A stretch of DNA of 63,704 nt, filler included, from Collodictyon triciliatum (GCA_043381765.1; 36 parts of 36 records of this genome joined end to end with filler, not necessarily neighbours in it); one strand, 5' to 3'; shown: positions 1-38,966, counted from the first letter of the whole stretch. Made by a program: numbers and translations. Notes: a model not told the origin generated them from the sequence alone.

Positions 1-308
1 AGACAGCGTCCACCCCACCCCACCCCTTTACCCTACAGGCAGCGTTCACCCTTCCTCCAAGACAGTATCCATCCCACCCCTTTACCCTTCAGGCAGGTGT
101 TCACCCTTCCTCCGAGACAGCGTCCAGCCCTCCACCAAGACAGCGTCCACCTCACCCCTTTACCCTTCAGGCAACGTTCACCCTTCCTCCGAGACAGCGT
201 CCACCCCACCTCCAAGACAGTGTTCGTCCTCCACCAAGACAGCGTCCATCCCACCCCTAGCCAACCTCCAAGAGAACATCCTCTCTTCCACCAAGACATC
301 CTCCACCT
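1..308. repeat. Degenerate C-rich tandem minisatellite (~57-bp and shorter units)
   Basis: Recurring AGACAGCGTCCACCCCACC / TTTACCCTTCAGGCA / GTTCACCCTTCCTCC blocks. Confidence 0.8.
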
Positions 309-734
309 GTAATGAGAGGTTATCGATTCTCAAAACACTACGATGCTTTTTGTTCTCGCCAGGAGAAAAGGAGAAAGGTAGACACAGCAAGGCGTAGGAG
401 GGTCCTTATTTATGAAAGACGCCTAGGTCTGACTCACGCTTTTGCAATGTCCACACCTCTGTTGGGAGACGGGTGACTTGTTCTCTCGTCATGTTGGCGT
501 GGCGTTCTTCCCCGAAATATCCTGGTGAGCTATATTCCAGACTTGTATAGTCCGCTGTAAAAGGGCGTCTGTTACACCACCCCTCCACCATAACAGCATC
601 CGCCCTTTCTCCAAATAATTGTCCTCTCCTCCTTCAAGACAACGTTGTATAAGGGCACCTACTGGTAACGGAAAGCGACATGAAAGGCCTTCAACACATC
701 GTGTTTATTATTGCTGTAGCAAAATAGTTTAAGC

Positions 735-3554: not shown

Positions 3555-5231
3555 GTAAATGTTGGACCCCTACGCTGTTCTTGTTGCGTTTCATCTACAT
3601 ATTCATATTGATACTCCGGTTCATCTAAATCTTGTGGGTCTGCACGTATTATTTGCAAACCTTGAATATAAGGGTCATCTTCATCTTCTTTTTCATAATC
3701 CGTTGCTATTAAAGCTTTTTCATATTCATTTTCAATCATCGGCTCATATTCTAATAATAATAATGGTGGTGATTGAGTTTGTACTGTGGACTGGGTGCTA
3801 CTTGAGGAACCTGGTGGAAGTCGTAATTCATATGGAACCATTTCATTGTAATACTCAGGACCTTTTATAGGTAATCCTTTTTTTTGATATATCTCTATAA
3901 TTTTTTGTGTTGGTGCAATTGAAACATCATATGAGTATTTATGTGTAGTCATTCCTCCTCCTTCTTTTTGAGTTTTGTCCTCAATAACTTCTATAAAGCG
4001 GTTTCGAATCGGCGCAGGTAATTGTTTTTCTATTATATATTCAAATCTAAAATTTAAATCATATTGATCTACTTTTACATCTTTTACACCATCTCTATAA
4101 TTATATGGAGTCATAAAATATTCATTTCTTGGTAATTTTTCTTCTTCTTCCTGTGATATATATATTCTAGGGTTATGTAATTTTTCATAAACAGCAACAC
4201 TACTCATGCAAATTTTATAAAAATCAACAGGCATACCTTTTTTTGCAATATGTAGTTCTTTTAAAAATTCAAGGCGTCGTTCATTTTCTGGTTTTTTAAG
4301 GACTCTATCCATTGATGTCATAAATTGGGGCATTGTTGCAAAAGTTACAGCATTTAAACTGCCAGGACCAAGTTTAAAATCGCTTATTGCTCTTTGGTCT
4401 TTTTCTGAAGGTGTATTCCATACAATCTGAAGATATTTATCCCAAAGTTGATCCACACCATTGACTATCATTCCATGCGGATAATTCCCTGATTTAGCTG
4501 TTGACTTTTGAATTCTTTCTAGAAATGTGGAAAAATCATCATCAAATATAGGTCTCAAATATTTATTATAAAACTGTTCCATAGTTAATTTTTCAGTGGG
4601 AAACAAATTTCGAGCTAGACTTGTTTGGGGTGAGGGTCCAGGTGTTAAAACTGTATCTGGTCGTGACGGAGAAATAGAAATAGGAGTTTTTGCTGGCGTC
4701 CGCAGTTTTGATACAGGTGTTTGAGGAGCAACAAATCGTGATTTACCCTCATGAAATATAAGTTGTATTTCTTCGTTAATAAAACGTTCACCTGTTTCCA
4801 ATTTTTCTTTAGCTCTTTTTTCAATAACTCCTATTTTAGCTGATAAACTAGCGTACTTGTCTAATAATAATAATCTTTCTTGTGATTCAGGTAGCTGTCC
4901 TTTAATATTTTCAACATTACCACGTAATGCTGCTTTAAATTTTCTAATTTCATAATTCAAATCATAAAGTGCTGCATTCTTTTTTACCACATCTATAGTT
5001 TTTACTACATTTTCCCCCAGTTTAGCTATATTTATTAGGTCATTATATAATTTTGCTATATCGTGTTGTTCGTCATTTATAATTGCCTCTCGTTCACTTA
5101 TTGGTGTAATTTCACCTGGTAGTCTTTTGGGTGTTACTGGCTTTTGAGGCAACGCTGGATTTGTTGGATTTACCCGAGTTTCGTCTTCAATCCGAGCCAT
5201 CAATGTATCATTTAATTTAAAAAGCAACTCT
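3555..5231 (-). CDS. Intronless contig-spanning ORF (~558 aa, open at both ends), unknown function, possibly viral
   Basis: Uninterrupted frame across an AT-rich contig, with no introns or microsatellites, unlike host genes here. Many S/T-P motifs and an acidic, Tyr-rich C-terminal part. Confidence 0.75.
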
Positions 5232-19338: not shown

Positions 19339-19550
19339 CTGCGAGAGTAGAAGTTTTTTTTTTTTTTTTTTTTTTTTTTTTGCAAGGGAAAATTTGGGTT
19401 TTTTTTTTTGGGTTTTTTTTTTGTTTTTATTTTTGTTTTATATACTTTTNNNNNNNNNNNNNNNNNNNNNNNNNNNNNNNNNNNNNNNNNNNNTTAATTA
19501 ATTAANNNNNNNNNNNNNNNNNNNNNNNNNNNNNNNNNNNNNNNNNNNNT

Positions 19551-20385
19551 TAATAGGGAAAAAAAAAAAAAAAAAAAGTCGGAGTGGACGCAGGCAAGTT
19601 TAATTTGGTTTACATGGTGGATGAGACAGGTAAGAAGTTACGCTACACGGCACACCAAAGAAGACTTGATAGCGAACCTCTTAAAAATCACAAAATTCTC
19701 TTGCGCGAGAAAAAAGTAAATGTTTCAGGGATATGCATGGCAACAGGTTTACAAAGTGCTGTTTCTTTTGGTTCCATGACTTTTGAAGAGAATCAGCAGT
19801 TTGAGACATTAATACTATCTTTAATCAATTTAGAGACAGAACTGAGTTAAAAATTCATCCACGGTCGATTATGAAAAATTCCGAGAATATGTATCTATGA
19901 AATCAAAATACCAGTAGAATTATCCAGATTTTATGAACGAGTAACTTTCCGAAAGCTGAGATGGAGACACTATGTTAACACAAAAAGAAGTGGACAATTA
20001 TGCGTGGACCGAATCGAAAAGACATTTGGCAAGGATGTTGTACTGGCGTATGGAGGCTGGAGCAGAAAATGTCGGATGAAATATTTTATGGCAACAATCG
20101 GAAGAGGATTACGAAAAATACTATCCAAACGTTTTGATACCAGTAAGTGTAAATGGATTTAGAACCTCCAAGATGTGCTGCAACTGCGAAAAAGAACTGG
20201 AATAAACGAAACCGAAAGGAAATACAAAAAAAAAAGATGGTGTATAGATGTCTCATATGTAAAGAATGCATCGCTCAGAAAGCAAAAAAAGTGTATTCTT
20301 GACAAGGGACTTTAACAGCGCTAATAATATACTCAACAAAGTTCTTTTAATCCTTCAAAATATGTCTTCACCTTCCTCTAAATAA
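19551..20385 (+). pseudogene. Fanzor (eukaryotic TnpB-like RuvC nuclease, Fanzor1-like), C-terminal half, frameshifted
   Basis: Manual translation across ~5 frameshifts gives VGVDAGKFNLVYM (RuvC-I D at 19587), LRYTAHQRR, LETELS/NSSTVDYEKFREY, FYERVTFRKLRWRHYVNTKRS, TFGKDVVLAYGGWS, IGRGLRKILSKRF, VSVNGFRTSKMCCNC (RuvC-II position E>G at 20155, first CxxC), YRCLICKEC (second CxxC) and FLTRDFNSANNIL (RuvC-III D at 20308). Confidence 0.88.
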
Positions 20386-20565
20386 CATGTTGTTGAGTCT
20401 TTCCTGGCAGCCTCCAGCACCACATGACCTTTGTGAAAAAGTGATGAGACCTTGGGTACAAGCGGAACAATCTTTCGACTGGTATGATATTTCAGACGGA
20501 GAGTAAATATGAAAAGCTCAAAAAAAAAAAAATAGCCCGTCGGACTCATACCCTTTCGGCCATAA
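20360..20565 (+). ncRNA. Candidate Fanzor omega-RNA scaffold / element 3' end
   Basis: Position-based inference: non-coding tract right after the Fanzor ORF, with short complementary segments, ending in GC-rich ...GCCCGTCGGACTCATACCCTTTCGGCC before an abrupt switch to AT-rich DNA. Confidence 0.35.
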
Positions 20566-21493
20566 TTATATGATAAATTATGTACTATATATTACATACC
20601 ACATATCGTTATTCAAGCAAAACAAAAATAAGGTTGACAAAAAAACAAAAAAACAAAAAGACAAAAAACCACCAAAAAACCACCAAAAAAATAATAATAT
20701 CATAATGATCGAGCGCAACATCAGCAAAGGCAAAGATTCGCGAGTGGGAAAGGGAAAGAAATGTCAGTCGAGCTGCGAGTGAGCCAAGAGCTTGACTTAC
20801 ACACCCCGGGCCAGCGAAAAACAGACAGGTGAGCGACCCTTTCTAACCTGCCCTTCGATCGCGTTTCTTAGCGAGGATTTTACCTCCAGCTTACTTTCAT
20901 TTCACCTCTCCTATTATTCGGTTGAGAGCTTTTCTTCTTAACATTTTATTTTTTCCCGCCTATGCAAGAATTCACTTGAATTGTGCCCCCACATGGCTTC
21001 GTCCAGCACTTACACACTAAACCAATTGCAGGCTCAGCAAACGCACCATGTACGTTCTATGCAGCTGCATGTATTCAGACCACGCAGTTTTTTTCACTGG
21101 TCTGGCGGACGGGAAGATACTGGGATGGAGGTTCTGGAGTATTCAAAAAACAAAAAACAAAAAACAAAAAACAAAAAACAAAAAACAAAAAACAAAAAAC
21201 AAAAAACAAAAAACAAAAAACAAANNNNNNNNNNNNNNNNNNNNNNNNNNNNNNNNNNNNNNNNNNNNTTAATTAATTAANNNNNNNNNNNNNNNNNNNN
21301 NNNNNNNNNNNNNNNNNNNNNNNNTCACCTCACCTCACCTCACCTCACCTCATCTCATCTCATCTCATCTCATCTCATCTCATCTCATCTCATCTCATCT
21401 CATCTCATCTCATCTCATCTCATCTCATCTCATCTCATCTCATCTCATCTCATCTCATATCATATCATATCATATCATATCATATCATCTCAG

Positions 21494-22959
21494 TTATTGT
21501 CTCCTTCCCGCTCGTGGATGAGCCTGGTGTCGCTCTTCTGGCCTGGACCACAACACCCTGGACCTTGCCGTCTAACCTTGCTCTTTGCGTTAACCCTGAA
21601 TTCGAATATGTCCGACTTACAGGTCTGTGCCAGTACATGTTGAAATATCGTTACGAAGACCACCTTTATTTCTCCAAAAACATTCGACCTCAGCTTTTAA
21701 GTTGTAATTACCTGAGGGTTTCTTCGATTTTTAACATTCTATCTGGTGTGTAGATAACGCAACGAAGGGTACGTACATTCTTGCCCGTCTCCGCTTGGAA
21801 CAGCTTTACAAGTCCGAGAAAGAATACACGGTTAGTTTCATGATACCATTTTACTGGACTACTTATGCCTTATCTATGAAGTGGTTGAAGAAGCTTCTCA
21901 TTAACTTCTAATTGATATGTCGGTACACGACGCTCGTCTCACCCCGATTAATCTTTATATGAATATTTTTGCATGTAGATCATCGCCACTTGCAAGGGCT
22001 CCGATTTGGTGGGGAAGAAGTACACTCCCCTCTTCAACTATTTCTACGAGGTAATTTCGTCCTTTTTTGTTTTTTTAACTCTGCAGATAAATGAAAAATT
22101 GGGGTTTCACTTGCAAACGTAAATATTTTCCTACAACGTTACGGACTCGCCAACATTTGATACTCCTTCATTAAGGAATTGTAATTATACGAAAGGAATA
22201 CTCAATCACTATTACGCTTTCCTGAGCTTCATTCTCAATTCAAACTGTAGGACTACGCTGCTGCTGCATTCAGAGTGATTTCGGATGGCTACGTCACGTC
22301 TGACAGTGGTACTGGTATTGTCCACTGCGCCCCAGCATTTGGTGAGGACGATTACCGCGTTTGCCTTGCCCACAGCATCATTCAAAAGGGAGAGAACGTC
22401 CTGTGCCCGGTCGATGATAACGGAAATTTCACCAATCGTGTCACAGACTTTGTTGGGAAGCACGTCAAGGTGTGTTATTTTAGTGTGCCAATCTGTGTCA
22501 CCAAATAGAGCATTTGTGGCTATATGTCCTTGGACCAAACTCTTGAAGGATTGAAAAAGGAACCGTGGTCTACTTACTTTGTTTTATTTCTTATAACTCC
22601 TTTTGTACGCCTGATTTTCAGGCAGCTGATAAGGAGATTATCAAGATGCTCAAGACAAACAACCGTTTGATTAGCCAAGGCACAATTGTCCATAGTTATC
22701 CATTCTGTTGGAGGTACAATTCATGAAACCTGGATTCCTAACATTTGCCCATGGGAATAGACACGAATTTATCATTTAAATATACATGTTGATATTTTAA
22801 TCAGCGAATGCACTAATTTCTTCGCTTAGCCTGGATCATGCTGATGTTAAGTCTCTACAGGTCAGAAACACCGCTAATCTATCGAGCAGTGCCCAGCTGG
22901 TTTGTTCGAGTTGAGTCCATCAAGGAGCAACTTCTCCACAATAATACCCTTTCCAGATG
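21494..22959 (+). CDS. IARS1: Cytosolic-type isoleucyl-tRNA synthetase, internal exons (editing region)
   Basis: [46 protein letters not shown] and [26 protein letters not shown]. Confidence 0.96.
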
Positions 22960-28588: not shown

Positions 28589-29702
28589 CTCTCTTCGGAC
28601 TTTTGTAATATATGCTGGACTGAGGAATTGGGACAAAGCCCGACCATTAAACTCGAATGTGGTCATTATTTCCACCTATTCTGTATCAAGAAGCGTATAG
28701 AAGAGAAATGGAATAGTAATAACGTTATTCATCGTCTTTGTTTTTTTCTTGTGTTTAATATTACTTACATTTTAACATAACTGCCACCAGCAATATAATG
28801 GATATTATGTGTTCAATTTTCAGATTCCAAAATTCACATCAGGAAGCGTTTTCTCATCATCAAGTTTTATCGCAGGTGCGCGAATCATGTTCCACTATCT
28901 TAACTGCCCTCTCTGCAACCAACGAATTAACCATCCTGCGCTTGTGGACGACTTAAGACCGCATCTTTTATTATATGAGGAAGTCAAGGTTTGTGGCTCG
29001 GCTGAAGTCTGAGCTCCAAAAAAAAAAATTGTGCCATATTGTATGAACTATACTTACATACAATTCTGACACAAGTCCTTTAAAAACCAACTGAATTTCA
29101 CTTATTCTTTCAGCAAAAAGCCTACACACGTCTCCTCTACGAAAATCTGGACAAATCTGTCGATATTCTGGTTGAGGGTGGCCGTTTCTATAATGACCCC
29201 ATAGGATACGCACTCGATCGCTTCTGCTATTATCTCTGCTACATATGCCAGGTTTATTTGCCTTTTTTTTCCACCTTTGAACCTCTTTTTTGGAAAATTT
29301 CATATGCTCTCAATTGAAAATAAATTTGGGGAAGATTAAATGAAATCTTGCTTAAAAATACAAGAAAGATAATATTTAAGGGAAGTACAGTATTAATTGA
29401 AGCTTTATCAATTTCATAAAGAGGGTGTATTTTGGAGGACAGAAGCAGTGCGAACAAGGGAATGATATGGATTTGAACTACGACCCCAGCGAACTGGTTT
29501 GCATATATTCAACACCCATTCGTGCTTATTACAGTAACGTGTCTGATATTTCTTTTTCTTTGTACCTTGAATTTGGCTTCATTCCAACGAATATACACTG
29601 ACCAGAAGCTATTTTGCCTAAATTTTATGTGATTAGGTTTGTGGGGGTTGCTGTCTCCCTGACAATGTACAGCCCTGTAAAGAACACGGAACAGAGTTTA
29701 TG
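28589..29702 (+). CDS. MYCBP2/Highwire-like RING-H2 plus tandem-cysteine (RCR) E3 ligase region, 5 exons
   Basis: DFCNICWTEELGQSPTIKLECGHYFHLFCIKKRIEEKWN|ARIMFHYLNCPLC...|KAYTRLLYENL...RFYNDPIGYALDRFCYYLCYICQ|RVYFGGQKQCEQG...YDPSEL|VCGGC...CKEHGTEF is colinear with the MYCBP2 C-terminus as I recall it. Confidence 0.88.
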
Positions 29703-31201: not shown

Positions 31202-31876
31202 TTATTCAACACGGAAGGTTTGCTGGTTGCTCTGGATTTCCAGCACGGCATCGTACAGACTAGCCACGATCACATTATAATTTTTGCCAACTGCGTCAGT
31301 GAATTCCAATCTCAAACTCATCAAGCCCGAGCCTGAAGACTGGATATCCGTTCCCACTATTTCGCCTTCGGCCACGTCCAAAACTTTACGCAAGTTAAAT
31401 GCTAACATGAACTCACAAGGATTCTGTGTAGCCTCGCGCATAAACCTAGTAGCTGCAGCTATTTCAGTGTTTCGAGCTGCATCATTTGCTGCTTGATCAC
31501 CAAGTGCACTGTTGTTTGCACGCAATAGTGGCCCAGCATAAGCATTTGCGCCAAATTTCACACCATTGGCACTATAAGGTTGAAATATTGTAACACCGTT
31601 TCTCACGCGGGCAGTAGGTGCATCAGCAGCAAATCCTGTAACTAAATCAAAAGTACCACCCGTGTATGGTGTGGTAAACTCGTCGCCGTCAAATCCAAAC
31701 GGCCCTGTATATTCACTGCGCACAAATGTAAGACCCATAGCTTTCTGAACTTCCAGAAAAACTTGGCTCGCCCTATTCTGACAGTCCATTGGCTGAAGAG
31801 GGTAGTAGAATGAACCAAGCTGAAGTTGTGCTGTTTTCAAATTAGTCGGGAAATGCTTTCTGTCTCGACCTGGAAT
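31202..31876 (-). CDS. Polinton-like virus (PLV)-type double jelly-roll major capsid protein, C-terminal half
   Basis: Intronless and open to the contig edge. AQLQLGSFYYPLQPM...SQVFLEVQKAMG...FMLAFNL...GTDI...LRLEF...YDAVLEI* follows the PLV/Polinton MCP C-terminal motif order. Confidence 0.78.
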   Translation of the reverse strand: MPGRDRKHFPTNLKTAQLQLGSFYYPLQPMDCQNRASQVFLEVQKAMGLTFVRSEYTGPFGFDGDEFTTPYTGGTFDLVTGFAADAPTARVRNGVTIFQPYSANGVKFGANAYAGPLLRANNSALGDQAANDAARNTEIAAATRFMREATQNPCEFMLAFNLRKVLDVAEGEIVGTDIQSSGSGLMSLRLEFTDAVGKNYNVIVASLYDAVLEIQSNQQTFRVE

Positions 31877-37294: not shown

Positions 37295-38966
37295 TTGGTG
37301 TAGCTCCAGCAAACGATGGTGTAGGATTAAGCCCTGCGCCGCGTTGAGAAGCAGTAAATGATTGTTGTGAACGTGAACCCATATTAGTACCAAGAGGATT
37401 ATTTTGCGGTTGTCTAGGTGTTGTGGCTCCGCTGCCCCCTCTGGGTGTAGCCCCCCCTGCTCTCCTTTCTGCTCTCAGTCTATCTAAATTTGCTTGTAGG
37501 TCAATATTTTCCTGAGCAAGTCTTTGATTTTCTTGTTCTTGTTCTCTAGTTTCTCGGGCTTGGGCTTGAATTGTATTGCCCTGTGCCTGTGTTTGTGCAA
37601 TTAGGGCACGTATGGTCTCAGCATCTGTTTCCCTGTCTGCTTGTAATCTTGCAAGTGCCTCGTCTGATTGACGCACAAGGTCAAGGTTAAATTGTTCTAA
37701 TTGTTCTATCGTTCTCTCATAAGCTATCTTTTGTTGAGCAAGTGCTTTTTCTAATTCTGCTATATCATTTGCACGTCTTTGTAGTCGTTTCCTGTCTGAA
37801 GTTGGAGTACTAGCCTGTCTTTGTCTTTCTTTTTCAAGTTCGTCTTCTGCTTTTTTTCTTTTTCTACCTGCTTCTTCAATCTCTTTTAAAAGTTGTTGGT
37901 TTCTATATTGCTCTTCGTTAGCGCGGTTAATTGCTTGTTTCAGTCTTTTAGGTGTGGCCTTGTGTGCGGCAATAGCTGCTTCTAATTCGGCTTTTATTTT
38001 TTCTTCTTTGGCAACTCCCTCATTAAGTTGAACTTCTTTTTCATTTAGTTGTCTTTGTAGGTTTATTATCTGTTCATTTTGTTGTGCAAGTAAGTCCTGT
38101 TGTCGTTTGAGTTCAGCGGGGTTTGTGCTTGACTGTTGAGCTTGTGCTTGCTGTTGTTGTTTTTTAAGCTCATCCAATTGTTTTTCTAAGTTTGCTTTTT
38201 GTTGAACTAGTTCTAGATTTCTTCTTTCCTGTTCAACTGCTCTTTTAGCTGCTTCCTGGGCTAGCCTACTTGGGGCTTTTCCTTTCAGTGCGTCGATTTG
38301 CTCTTGTCGCTCTTGATCAAGAGACATATAAAATTCCAATTGTTGGAGTCTCATCTTTTCAAGTTTGATTAGGTCGTTGGCTGCTGCATTTAATGCCGCT
38401 GTTAATTTATCGAGCTCCCGATTGCCTTCCTCAGTTAAATTGTCTCGTAATCCAATGAGGGCTACTTGTGTGTTGATTGTTGTACTATGTAAGGCTTTAA
38501 CTCTAGCAGCATCATTACCTTGAAGGGCTAAGAAATTGCTTCTGACTTGCGCAATATTACCCTGCGCTTCAGGCCTGTCTATGTCTCGAATGGCTAATTG
38601 TTGATCATTCAATTGTCCTCTTAATTCTAACAATTCTCTTTTAAGTTGTTCAATGTACAGCTGCTGGGCCCCCAAGAAATCTTCTTGTGTATTCGCTAAT
38701 CTGCCGGGGGACATTCTCTTGGCCATTGCTAGACTTCTGGTTGTTTGAGATATTCTGACTGTCAAGGCTTTTGAATTATCGATAAATTCTTGGGCTGCTG
38801 GACTTTTTTCTTGTGGAAACACACGTCCAGGGGTGGGAGCTAAGGGGGGTCTAGGTGAAAATGGTCGCCGTGTGTCAGCTGTTTGTTCTGATTGGCCTCC
38901 TTCGATTTGTTTTTGGGGTGTTTTGCGTGGTGATATTGCTACCGCGACACCTCGACTTTTCACGGG
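37295..38966 (-). CDS. Intronless contig-spanning coiled-coil ORF (~557 aa, open at both ends), possibly viral
   Basis: Uninterrupted Q/E/K/A-rich heptad-like frame flanked by S/T-P-rich segments; no introns or microsatellites. Confidence 0.75.

Follow-up and report, generated by a model that had tools for sequence, protein, structure and literature searches.

A truncated and decayed Fanzor1 copy that probably belongs to a multi-copy element family of a freshwater eukaryote

Introduction

Which gene left the interrupted coding remnants at positions 19551 to 20385 of a 63,704-base stretch of the Collodictyon triciliatum assembly GCA_043381765.1, is this copy still able to encode an active protein, and does it belong to the genome of a cellular organism? 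The whole stretch that was analysed is called the window in the following. The initial annotation had proposed a remnant of a Fanzor, a eukaryotic TnpB-like nuclease, with a RuvC domain and a zinc finger. Our analysis is in agreement with this proposal and refines it: the segment 19569-20385 on the plus strand is the decayed 3' part of a Fanzor1 gene, comprising RuvC-I, the site of the relocated RuvC-II glutamate (Glu), the zinc ribbon, and RuvC-III. With a probability of roughly 85%, in our estimate, it is a truncated, decayed member of a Fanzor1 element family that is present in multiple copies in a freshwater eukaryote. The intact ancestor would have been an omega-RNA-guided nuclease that cut double-stranded DNA with a single RuvC site of aspartate (Asp), Glu, and Asp, and the mobile element that carried it would have supplied the guide RNA by transcription of the element's 3' end; this RNA-guided mechanism is expected of the intact ancestors from their family membership.

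The Remnant and Its Homologs

The window is composed of 36 contigs of 1665-1685 bases each, which are ordered roughly by falling length and are joined by 35 linkers of the form N44-TTAATTAATTAA-N44. Because these are separate contigs with artificial linkers between them, features on adjacent contigs are not linked to one another. The remnant is confined to the twelfth contig, and its features are as follows:

19550-21224, contig 12, carrying the Fanzor1 remnant; 1675 bases, with an N44-TTAATTAATTAA-N44 linker at either side
19559-19577 (+), run of 19 A, nine bases after the contig start; assembly break
19569-20385 (+), Fanzor1 pseudogene fragment from RuvC-I to RuvC-III with zinc ribbon; profile positions 360-599 of 650; stop codon TAA at 20383-20385
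19578-19595 (+), VGVDAG (RuvC-I); Asp kept (GAC, 19587-19589) and followed by alanine (Ala; GCA, 19590-19592)
19947-19991 (+), FRKLRWRHYVNTKRS, motif between RuvC-I and VVLAYGGWS
20037-20063 (+), VVLAYGGWS; its first glycine (Gly) stands where RuvC-II canonically has Glu, a Fanzor-type replacement
20100-20123 (+), GRGLRKIL
20149-20187 (+), VNGFRTSKMCCNC, which includes the GGA codon 20155-20157
20176-20187 (+), CCNC, zinc-ribbon cysteines
20249-20269 (+), CLICKEC, zinc-ribbon cysteines; CKEC itself at 20258-20269
20305-20331 (+), RDFNSANNI (RuvC-III); catalytic Asp kept (GAC, 20308-20310)

All seven motifs that the initial annotation had stitched together were recovered where it had placed them, distributed over three reading frames. 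The first four share one frame, VNGFRTSKMCCNC and RDFNSANNI lie in a second, and CKEC lies in the third; the linker between CCNC and CLICKEC is variable. The portion present amounts to the last 37% of the protein, i.e., about 240 of about 650 codons. Profile positions 1-359, the N-terminal 55% of the gene, in which the large REC/WED region of a Fanzor1 of about 600-700 aa would lie, are absent from this contig, and the front is missing because the contig starts, or breaks, at the poly-A run. At this place other copies have an A-rich, interrupted stretch (loose ends at 19582-19585).

The homology was analyzed with a hidden Markov model (HMM) of 50 full-length relatives (alignment A1), namely all listed database matches with a size of 560-800 amino acids (aa), with which the complete six-frame translation of the window, 1902 pieces, was searched. 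Six colinear pieces of 19557-20382 were the top matches:

19557-19847, HMM piece 1, E 4.9e-16
19846-19914, HMM piece 2, E 1.1e-3
19875-20159, HMM piece 3, E 2.1e-33
20080-20202, HMM piece 4, E 8.9e-4
20153-20299, HMM piece 5, E 0.062
20263-20382, HMM piece 6, E 1.9e-4

A tblastn search with the 634-aa relative P0004 reached an E-value of 1.3e-41 and matched one of the 36 contigs, the one with the Fanzor1 stretch. E-values of 1e-33 to 1e-41 exclude a chance pattern. When the 95-aa piece 19875-20162 was compared with 1.84 billion proteins using phmmer, 586 matches were obtained at E <= 1e-3, of which 43 reach E <= 1e-10. Their lengths range from 59 to 1010 aa, and many have 600-700 aa. A word-based protein search returned 23 candidates, none of them significant. 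The 41-aa, 40-aa, and 97-aa pieces alone had no Fanzor match in the PDB: chance matches were returned for the 41-aa piece (E of about 1) and for the 97-aa piece, and no match at all for the 40-aa piece.

The best HMM match elsewhere in the window had an E-value of 0.098. It is a piece at 29512-29697 (-) that corresponds to Fanzor1 profile positions 278-316 and has a TDG-like motif at its end. This match is probably due to chance, because it has neither Pfam support nor neighboring matching pieces.

Assignment to Fanzor1

Several RuvC nuclease families share this overall architecture, and comparison with solved structures supports the classification of the stretch as a Fanzor1-type remnant. Among 177,635 distinct solved sequences, the top two matches of the 95-aa piece were the Fanzor1 proteins of Parasitella parasitica (E 4.5e-4) and Spizellomyces punctatus (E 0.29). 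With the profile of the 50 relatives, the Parasitella, Spizellomyces, and Guillardia Fanzor1 proteins were retrieved at E-values of 6.4e-107, 2.2e-99, and 9.5e-87, and the matches span nearly the whole chain lengths. Beyond these, the profile reached only two LaTranC entries at E <= 0.01 (5.8e-4 and 1.1e-3), and neither Fanzor2 nor TnpB was represented at this threshold. A comparison with TnpB and Fanzor profiles had been suggested together with the proposal of a Fanzor remnant, and this outcome places the remnant in Fanzor1. Pfam analysis of ten relatives revealed only a Cas12f1-like TNB domain, in seven of the ten at E <= 0.01 and in two above the cut-off.

The motif order is like that of the solved Fanzor1 proteins of S. 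punctatus (SpuFz1, 8GKH), P. parasitica (Fz1, 9CF0), and Guillardia theta (GtFz1, 9CER). Common to all is the succession of RuvC-I GxDPG, a Gly-(D/N)-W site, (D/N)E(F/Y)xTSK, the Cys pairs, and RDxN. Unlike them, the window copy comprises the last 37% only, carries five frameshifts, has Gly at the equivalent of SpuFz1 E541 and Ala at the proline (Pro) of DPG, and no omega-RNA or inverted repeat was detected for it.

Catalytic Residues

To place the catalytic residues, the profile of the relatives was aligned to chain 8gkh_P, in which the chain residues 777, 935, and 1000 were converted by subtraction of an offset of 394. The Asp, Glu, and Asp of the family thereby fall on SpuFz1 D383, E541, and D606. 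A passage in PMC10432273 gives E541, D383, N385, and D606 as the magnesium ligands of SpuFz1. As described in part of PMC10530073, the canonical RuvC-II Glu is replaced by Pro or Gly in Fanzors, which use a conserved Glu further downstream, and an Ala at the equivalent downstream Glu of ApmFNuc abolished cleavage. The text of preprint 10.1101/2023.08.09.552727 names DPG as a signature motif. The states of the key positions are:

RuvC-I Asp (P0004 D372): D in 49 of 50 relatives; D in the window
following Pro (P0004 P373): P in 50 of 50; A in the window
Gly at the canonical Glu site (P0004 G496): G in 50 of 50; G in the window
position after G496 (P0004 D497): D in 26, N in 20, S in 3, and T in 1 of 50; G in the window
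relocated RuvC-II Glu (P0004 E530): E in 50 of 50, aligned with SpuFz1 E541; G in the window (GGA, 20155-20157)
RuvC-III Asp (P0004 D581): D in 49 of 50; D in the window

The RuvC-III arginine is likewise an R in 49 of the 50 relatives. All zinc-ribbon cysteines are kept in the window copy, and the matching columns are C in 34-36 of 50 relatives.

Three residue changes had been interpreted as signs of decay. The change of Glu to Gly at 20155 is borne out, as the codon is GGA and the position is invariant among the relatives. The window copy thus carries Gly in place of the relocated Glu of the (D/N)E(F/Y)xTSK motif, which renders it catalytically dead. The change of DPG to DAG is also a true loss. 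The third, GDW to GGW, carries little weight, because the position is variable. Loss of the Glu is no argument against descent from a Fanzor1 gene.

Frameshifts

The initial annotation had counted about five frameshifts. A frameshift-aware alignment to the relatives P0002, P0003, and P0004 needs five frame changes in 19569-20385:

19845-19851 (+), frameshift 1; all 11 covering contigs of four public sequencing runs have two more letters, after 19850 and 19851
19914-19917 (+), frameshift 2; seven contigs in three runs have one more letter after 19914, others are as the window
20138-20143 (+), frameshift 3, due to one extra base; a letter is missing at 20138 or 20141 in seven run X2 contigs
within 20201-20225 (+), frameshift 4, beside an A-run, in the variable linker between CCNC and CLICKEC
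20269-20272 (+), frameshift 5; about half of the other copies (seven contigs, three runs) have one more letter after 20269

Taken together, the five frameshifts, the exchange of the magnesium-binding Glu for Gly, and that of the invariant Pro of DPG for Ala support the view, already put forward in the initial annotation, that this copy is dead; it is unable to encode an active nuclease.

One further stretch was considered as an interruption of the gene. It is open, and it has a counterpart in the partial relative P0002:

19716-19833 (+), 40-codon open stretch common to P0002 and absent from the giant-virus clade

This distribution makes it a subfamily marker. A reading of the same stretch as a 118-nucleotide (nt) GT..AG intron was rejected, as the spliced frame meets an in-frame TGA at 19843-19845. 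It is also opposed by the fact that P0002 is coding there and that other copies regain the frame via the two letters at 19850/51. None of the joints in run X2, which may be an RNA data set, has GT..AG ends.

A Family of Diverged Copies

Many other copies of the element exist. Logan contigs of four public runs were aligned to the stretch at a likeness of at least 85%; the candidate runs, which are freshwater or lake metagenomes and two coded organisms, had sampled-word shares of 0.05-0.14 at best. The numbers of short contigs on the stretch were 82, 133, 48, and 12 per run, almost all of them on 19580 to about 20430, and their likeness to the window ranges from below 90% to above 99%. Up to 12 contigs of run X2 overlap at one place (19637), and as up to 12 differing contigs of a single run cover one position, they represent a family of diverged copies. 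The window copy is very probably one of many diverged copies of a nuclear repeat family.

The repeated unit extends beyond the stop codon, and its end can be seen from the coverage:

20386-20465 (+), untranslated tail of the repeated family; the depth of look-alikes falls at about 20427-20480, with a loose end at 20440
20500-21143, flank of the Fanzor1 remnant; low-copy, with near-identical pieces of low depth in four runs

Because the summed depth falls between 20427 and 20480 in runs X1, X2, and X3, the repeated unit probably ends there, although at no exactly defined base. On 20500-21130 there are only a few near-identical pieces of low depth (records 8, 16, 24, 31, and 32).

Some of the other copies keep the catalytic Glu and lack the frameshifts of the window copy. 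Loose ends at 20137 read as V-D-E-F-R-T by manual translation, i.e., with the Glu kept. Identity to the window piece is 67-79% for three short database proteins (P0001, P0156, and P0157), whose contigs, of about 0.5 kb, were sourced from NCBI. In P0156 and P0157 the frame continues across 20141 and the Glu is present; P0001 has a frameshift of its own.

The initial annotation had expected a Fanzor1-like family in the host, possibly with intact members. The family is supported by the diverged run contigs and by these three fragments, not by linkage on the contig as had been argued. A full-length, intact copy from the organism was not seen among the contigs of the four runs and the three database fragments.

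Intact Relatives in Giant Viruses and Their Predicted 3' RNA

What may an intact element of this kind have looked like? The alignment of relatives was scanned against metagenome contigs and against IMG/VR. At least 509 of 598 matching metagenome stretches and at least 551 of 598 in IMG/VR were confirmed as relatives by tblastn, and the best 80 from each scan were kept. An uninterrupted open reading frame (ORF) of 526-699 aa is present in all of these 160 best loci. The nearest intact relatives by tree distance are the loci L001-L004 and L081-L086 and the protein P0004. Their elements belong to giant-virus genomes that were assembled from metagenomes of water.

Terminal inverted repeats of 31-38 nt, 2.7-3.3 kb apart, enclose the Fanzor1 ORF in all four of the nearest loci that were analyzed for them (L002, L003, L083, and L085). 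The best described example is:

L002:4637-7952, giant-virus Fanzor1 element with inverted repeats, Fanzor1, and a transposase

Its second ORF, on the opposite strand, encodes a divergently oriented transposase with DDE_3 (E 1.3e-13) and HTH_28 domains. DDE_3 is a transposase of the Tc1/mariner/IS630 type. A homolog of the L002 transposase was detected by tblastn in L003, L083, and L085, and altogether in 44 of the 160 loci, including all nine loci of the closest clade for which upstream sequence is available. An association of Fanzor1 with Mariner/Tc1 elements and the presence of Fanzor1 in giant viruses are already in print, in passages of PMC10530073 and PMC10432273.

The 3' ends of these elements contain a conserved structured element. 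In seven of the nearest loci the last 160-185 bases, from the ORF end through the right repeat, fold into a common structure. An alignment of the last 256-261 bases (from L002:7700 onward) predicts 57 pairs, and compensatory changes support 20 of these.

L002:7797-7955, structured RNA-like element that overlaps the Fanzor1 ORF end and the right inverted repeat; found at the same position in 45 further loci

A covariance model with 47 pairs, R1, was built from the stretch L002:7797-7955. It matched the same sense-strand position in 46 of 83 loci searched, with E-values down to 3e-14, and 37 of these 46 loci were neither used in building R1 nor identical to those used. This conserved 3' element is likely, judged from covariation and position, to be the omega-RNA scaffold of the viral Fanzor1 lineage.

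The domain order of the window copy is the same as that of the giant-virus DDE_3 and Fanzor1 elements over 268 positions. These elements have intact ORFs of about 634 aa, 31-38 nt inverted repeats (four loci), a divergently oriented transposase homolog, and the conserved structured 3' RNA; in contrast, the window copy has none of these features in detectable form, is about 48% identical, and contains an extra insert of 40 codons.

Weighing of the Evidence

Several results weigh against the reading of the stretch as a copy from a mobile, multi-copy element family. The window contains no transposase (best tblastn E 3.9); the linked transposase that the initial annotation had proposed to look for occurs in the relatives only, as DDE_3. 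There is no similarity to the inverted repeats of the relatives in the window (142 to 493 of 500 shuffles reach the score). The model R1 has no credible match on the Fanzor1 contig (E 0.2 and 0.74 on the minus strand; the best plus-strand match, E 2, lies in the wrong place), and an Rfam scan of the Fanzor1 stretch gave nothing. The summed contig depth is not a copy number, as the tool itself warns. No listed run contig bridges the element and the flank (about 20430-20500), so that their linkage rests on the window's own assembly. Lastly, frameshift 1 at 19850/51 was reproduced by none of the 11 covering contigs. As neither inverted repeat nor transposase nor omega-RNA was found in the window, we infer the mobile-element context of this copy, like any link with giant viruses, from the relatives with about 48% identity. 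A divergence of about 48% together with the decay could hide an omega-RNA in the window copy.

By eye, the segment 20441-20461 resembles the viral inverted repeats. The resemblance lacks significance, as 142-493 of 500 shuffled sequences score as high, the region was not aligned with the viral repeats by MAFFT, and its reverse complement had no second match in the window; a left end would lie off the contig.

The alternative that survives best, and that we nevertheless regard as improbable, is that the contig stems not from a host transposon but from a giant virus that carried the Fanzor1 element, either directly or through an endogenised insert of such a virus. The nearest intact relatives indeed reside on IMG/VR contigs, many with giant-virus bin names and some longer than 250 kb, and the L002 element sits between DUF5755 and ribonucleotide reductase genes. 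A FastTree phylogeny of HMM columns 360-599 (249 sequences with at least 170 residues there, a requirement that excluded P0002 among others) also placed the window on a long branch beside a 16-member clade with P0004 and viral loci, L081-L086 included. However, the support of this placement is weak (0.47; the window and the 16-member clade lie inside a 20-member clade with a support of 0.815), and the window protein agrees with that viral clade at only about 48% of positions (P0004, 128 of 268 aligned). The closest relative is P0002, with 108 identities at 202 positions and the 40-codon insert that it has in common with the window, and no look-alike of P0002 was found in viral contigs. The many diverged, partly broken copies in one run are a better fit to a cellular repeat family than to a virus, and the flank has no viral gene and ends in an A6C-type microsatellite like three other contigs. 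The reading as a host copy is therefore preferred.

Still less probable is that the organism has an intact gene, into which a poor, highly fragmented assembly introduced the frameshifts and odd residues. The assembly is indeed fragmentary, with contigs of about 1.67 kb of which most end in repeats, an A-run lies beside frameshift 4, and frameshift 1 could be an assembly error, because the 11 contigs of other runs all lack it. But the other four frameshifts are not in homopolymers, and at 19914, 20141, and 20269 the state of the window is carried by part of the contig depth of independent runs, so that these frameshifts are real variants of some copies and not assembly errors. In addition, point changes have altered the P and the E that are both invariant in 50 of 50 relatives, and the window copy has many single-letter differences from all other copies, as expected of an old, dead copy. 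At frameshift 3, some other copies evidently differ from the window: the extra base is missing not only from the X2 contigs but also from the fragments P0156 and P0157.

The remaining option, a contaminant with a RuvC protein of a different family (prokaryotic TnpB or Fanzor2) or else a chance pattern, is scarcely credible, as its sole support is a Pfam match to OrfB_IS605 below threshold (E 0.049, 14.3 bits, cut-off 30.5; the first of five window pieces searched, and the only match), against the chance-excluding E-values, the restriction of strong profile matches to Fanzor1 chains, and the Gly at the canonical RuvC-II position, described in part of PMC10530073 as typical of Fanzors. The decayed Fanzor1 copy does resemble prokaryotic TnpB and Fanzor2 in the single split RuvC, the zinc ribbon before RuvC-III, and the RNA-guided mechanism expected of them. 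Unlike these, its relatives, selected in the range of 560-800 aa, have a large N-terminal region and match Fanzor1 along nearly the whole length, and the transposase beside the relative L002 is of the DDE_3 type; Fanzor2 and TnpB would be marked by a short length of about 400-500 aa and by an IS607 or IS200/605 TnpA nearby.

The Contig and the Window

The initial annotation had placed the remnant on one contig with a host-type microsatellite. This argument fails in part, because the window is not a single contig: the (TCATC)n array lies on the following contig. The Fanzor1 contig ends in an array of its own.

21144-21224 (+), terminal (CAAAAAA)11.6 microsatellite of the Fanzor1 contig
21325-21492, (TCATC)n array on the contig following the Fanzor1 contig

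An A6C-type repeat like that of the Fanzor1 contig is also present on contigs 8, 17, and 32. Many window contigs have a microsatellite at their start or end, which indicates that the assembly broke at repeats. No Pfam family was matched by the ORFs of the flank (20500-21143), and a blastn comparison of the Fanzor1 contig with the other 35 contigs of the window returned the self-match only. Eukaryotic domains were found on other window contigs, namely Arm (Armadillo), Kelch, RING, and a mitochondrial-type L21; an Rfam scan of the whole window retrieved 0 families. The setting is in all likelihood a nuclear genome rich in AT and in microsatellites, that of a freshwater eukaryote.

Some features of other contigs are recorded here for completeness:

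3557-5230 (-), end-to-end open frame of the contig, 558 aa; no Pfam family
37296-38966 (-), end-to-end open frame of the contig, 557 aa; no Pfam family; rich in Q/E/A/L, with the look of a coiled coil
31205-31876 (-), 224-aa open frame running off the contig end; no Pfam match
21508-21750 (+), exon-sized ORF on contig 13
22251-22505 (+), exon-sized ORF on contig 13
43872-44132, 44-base tandem repeat, six copies (89% matches), through which long minus-strand ORFs read
57183-58296, gap of 523 N, then a 13-base tandem repeat with about 45 copies (57706-58296)

The intronless 1.67-kb frames at 3557-5230 and 37296-38966 contrast with contig 13, where conserved, exon-sized ORFs are parted by stops. 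Judged from a motif, the two ORFs of contig 13 may be parts of a cytosolic isoleucyl-tRNA synthetase. Pfam gave nothing for either at E <= 0.01; in an Atlas look-up of the ORF 22251-22505, the third match was a class I tRNA ligase cluster.

Implications

Taken alone, this copy carries little weight: it is dead, cut off by the assembly, and of a known kind. Fanzor1 genes and decayed copies have already been catalogued across eukaryotes and giant viruses, as stated in parts of PMC10432273 and PMC10530073, and the family may already be listed in the supplementary tables of Fanzor surveys. Its value is that of a flag, which marks the source organism, with its multi-copy Fanzor1 family, as worth a search for intact members.

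A more far-reaching proposal, which we regard as tentative and rather doubtful, is that the organism carries a large, still partly functional family of Fanzor1 elements, possibly of recent common ancestry with the elements of DDE transposase and Fanzor1 that are common among giant viruses from the same waters. If this were true, transposons with RNA-guided nucleases would be traded between giant viruses and their hosts. The abundant, transposase-linked relatives in giant viruses, with their conserved 3' RNA, bear on this movement between viruses and hosts.

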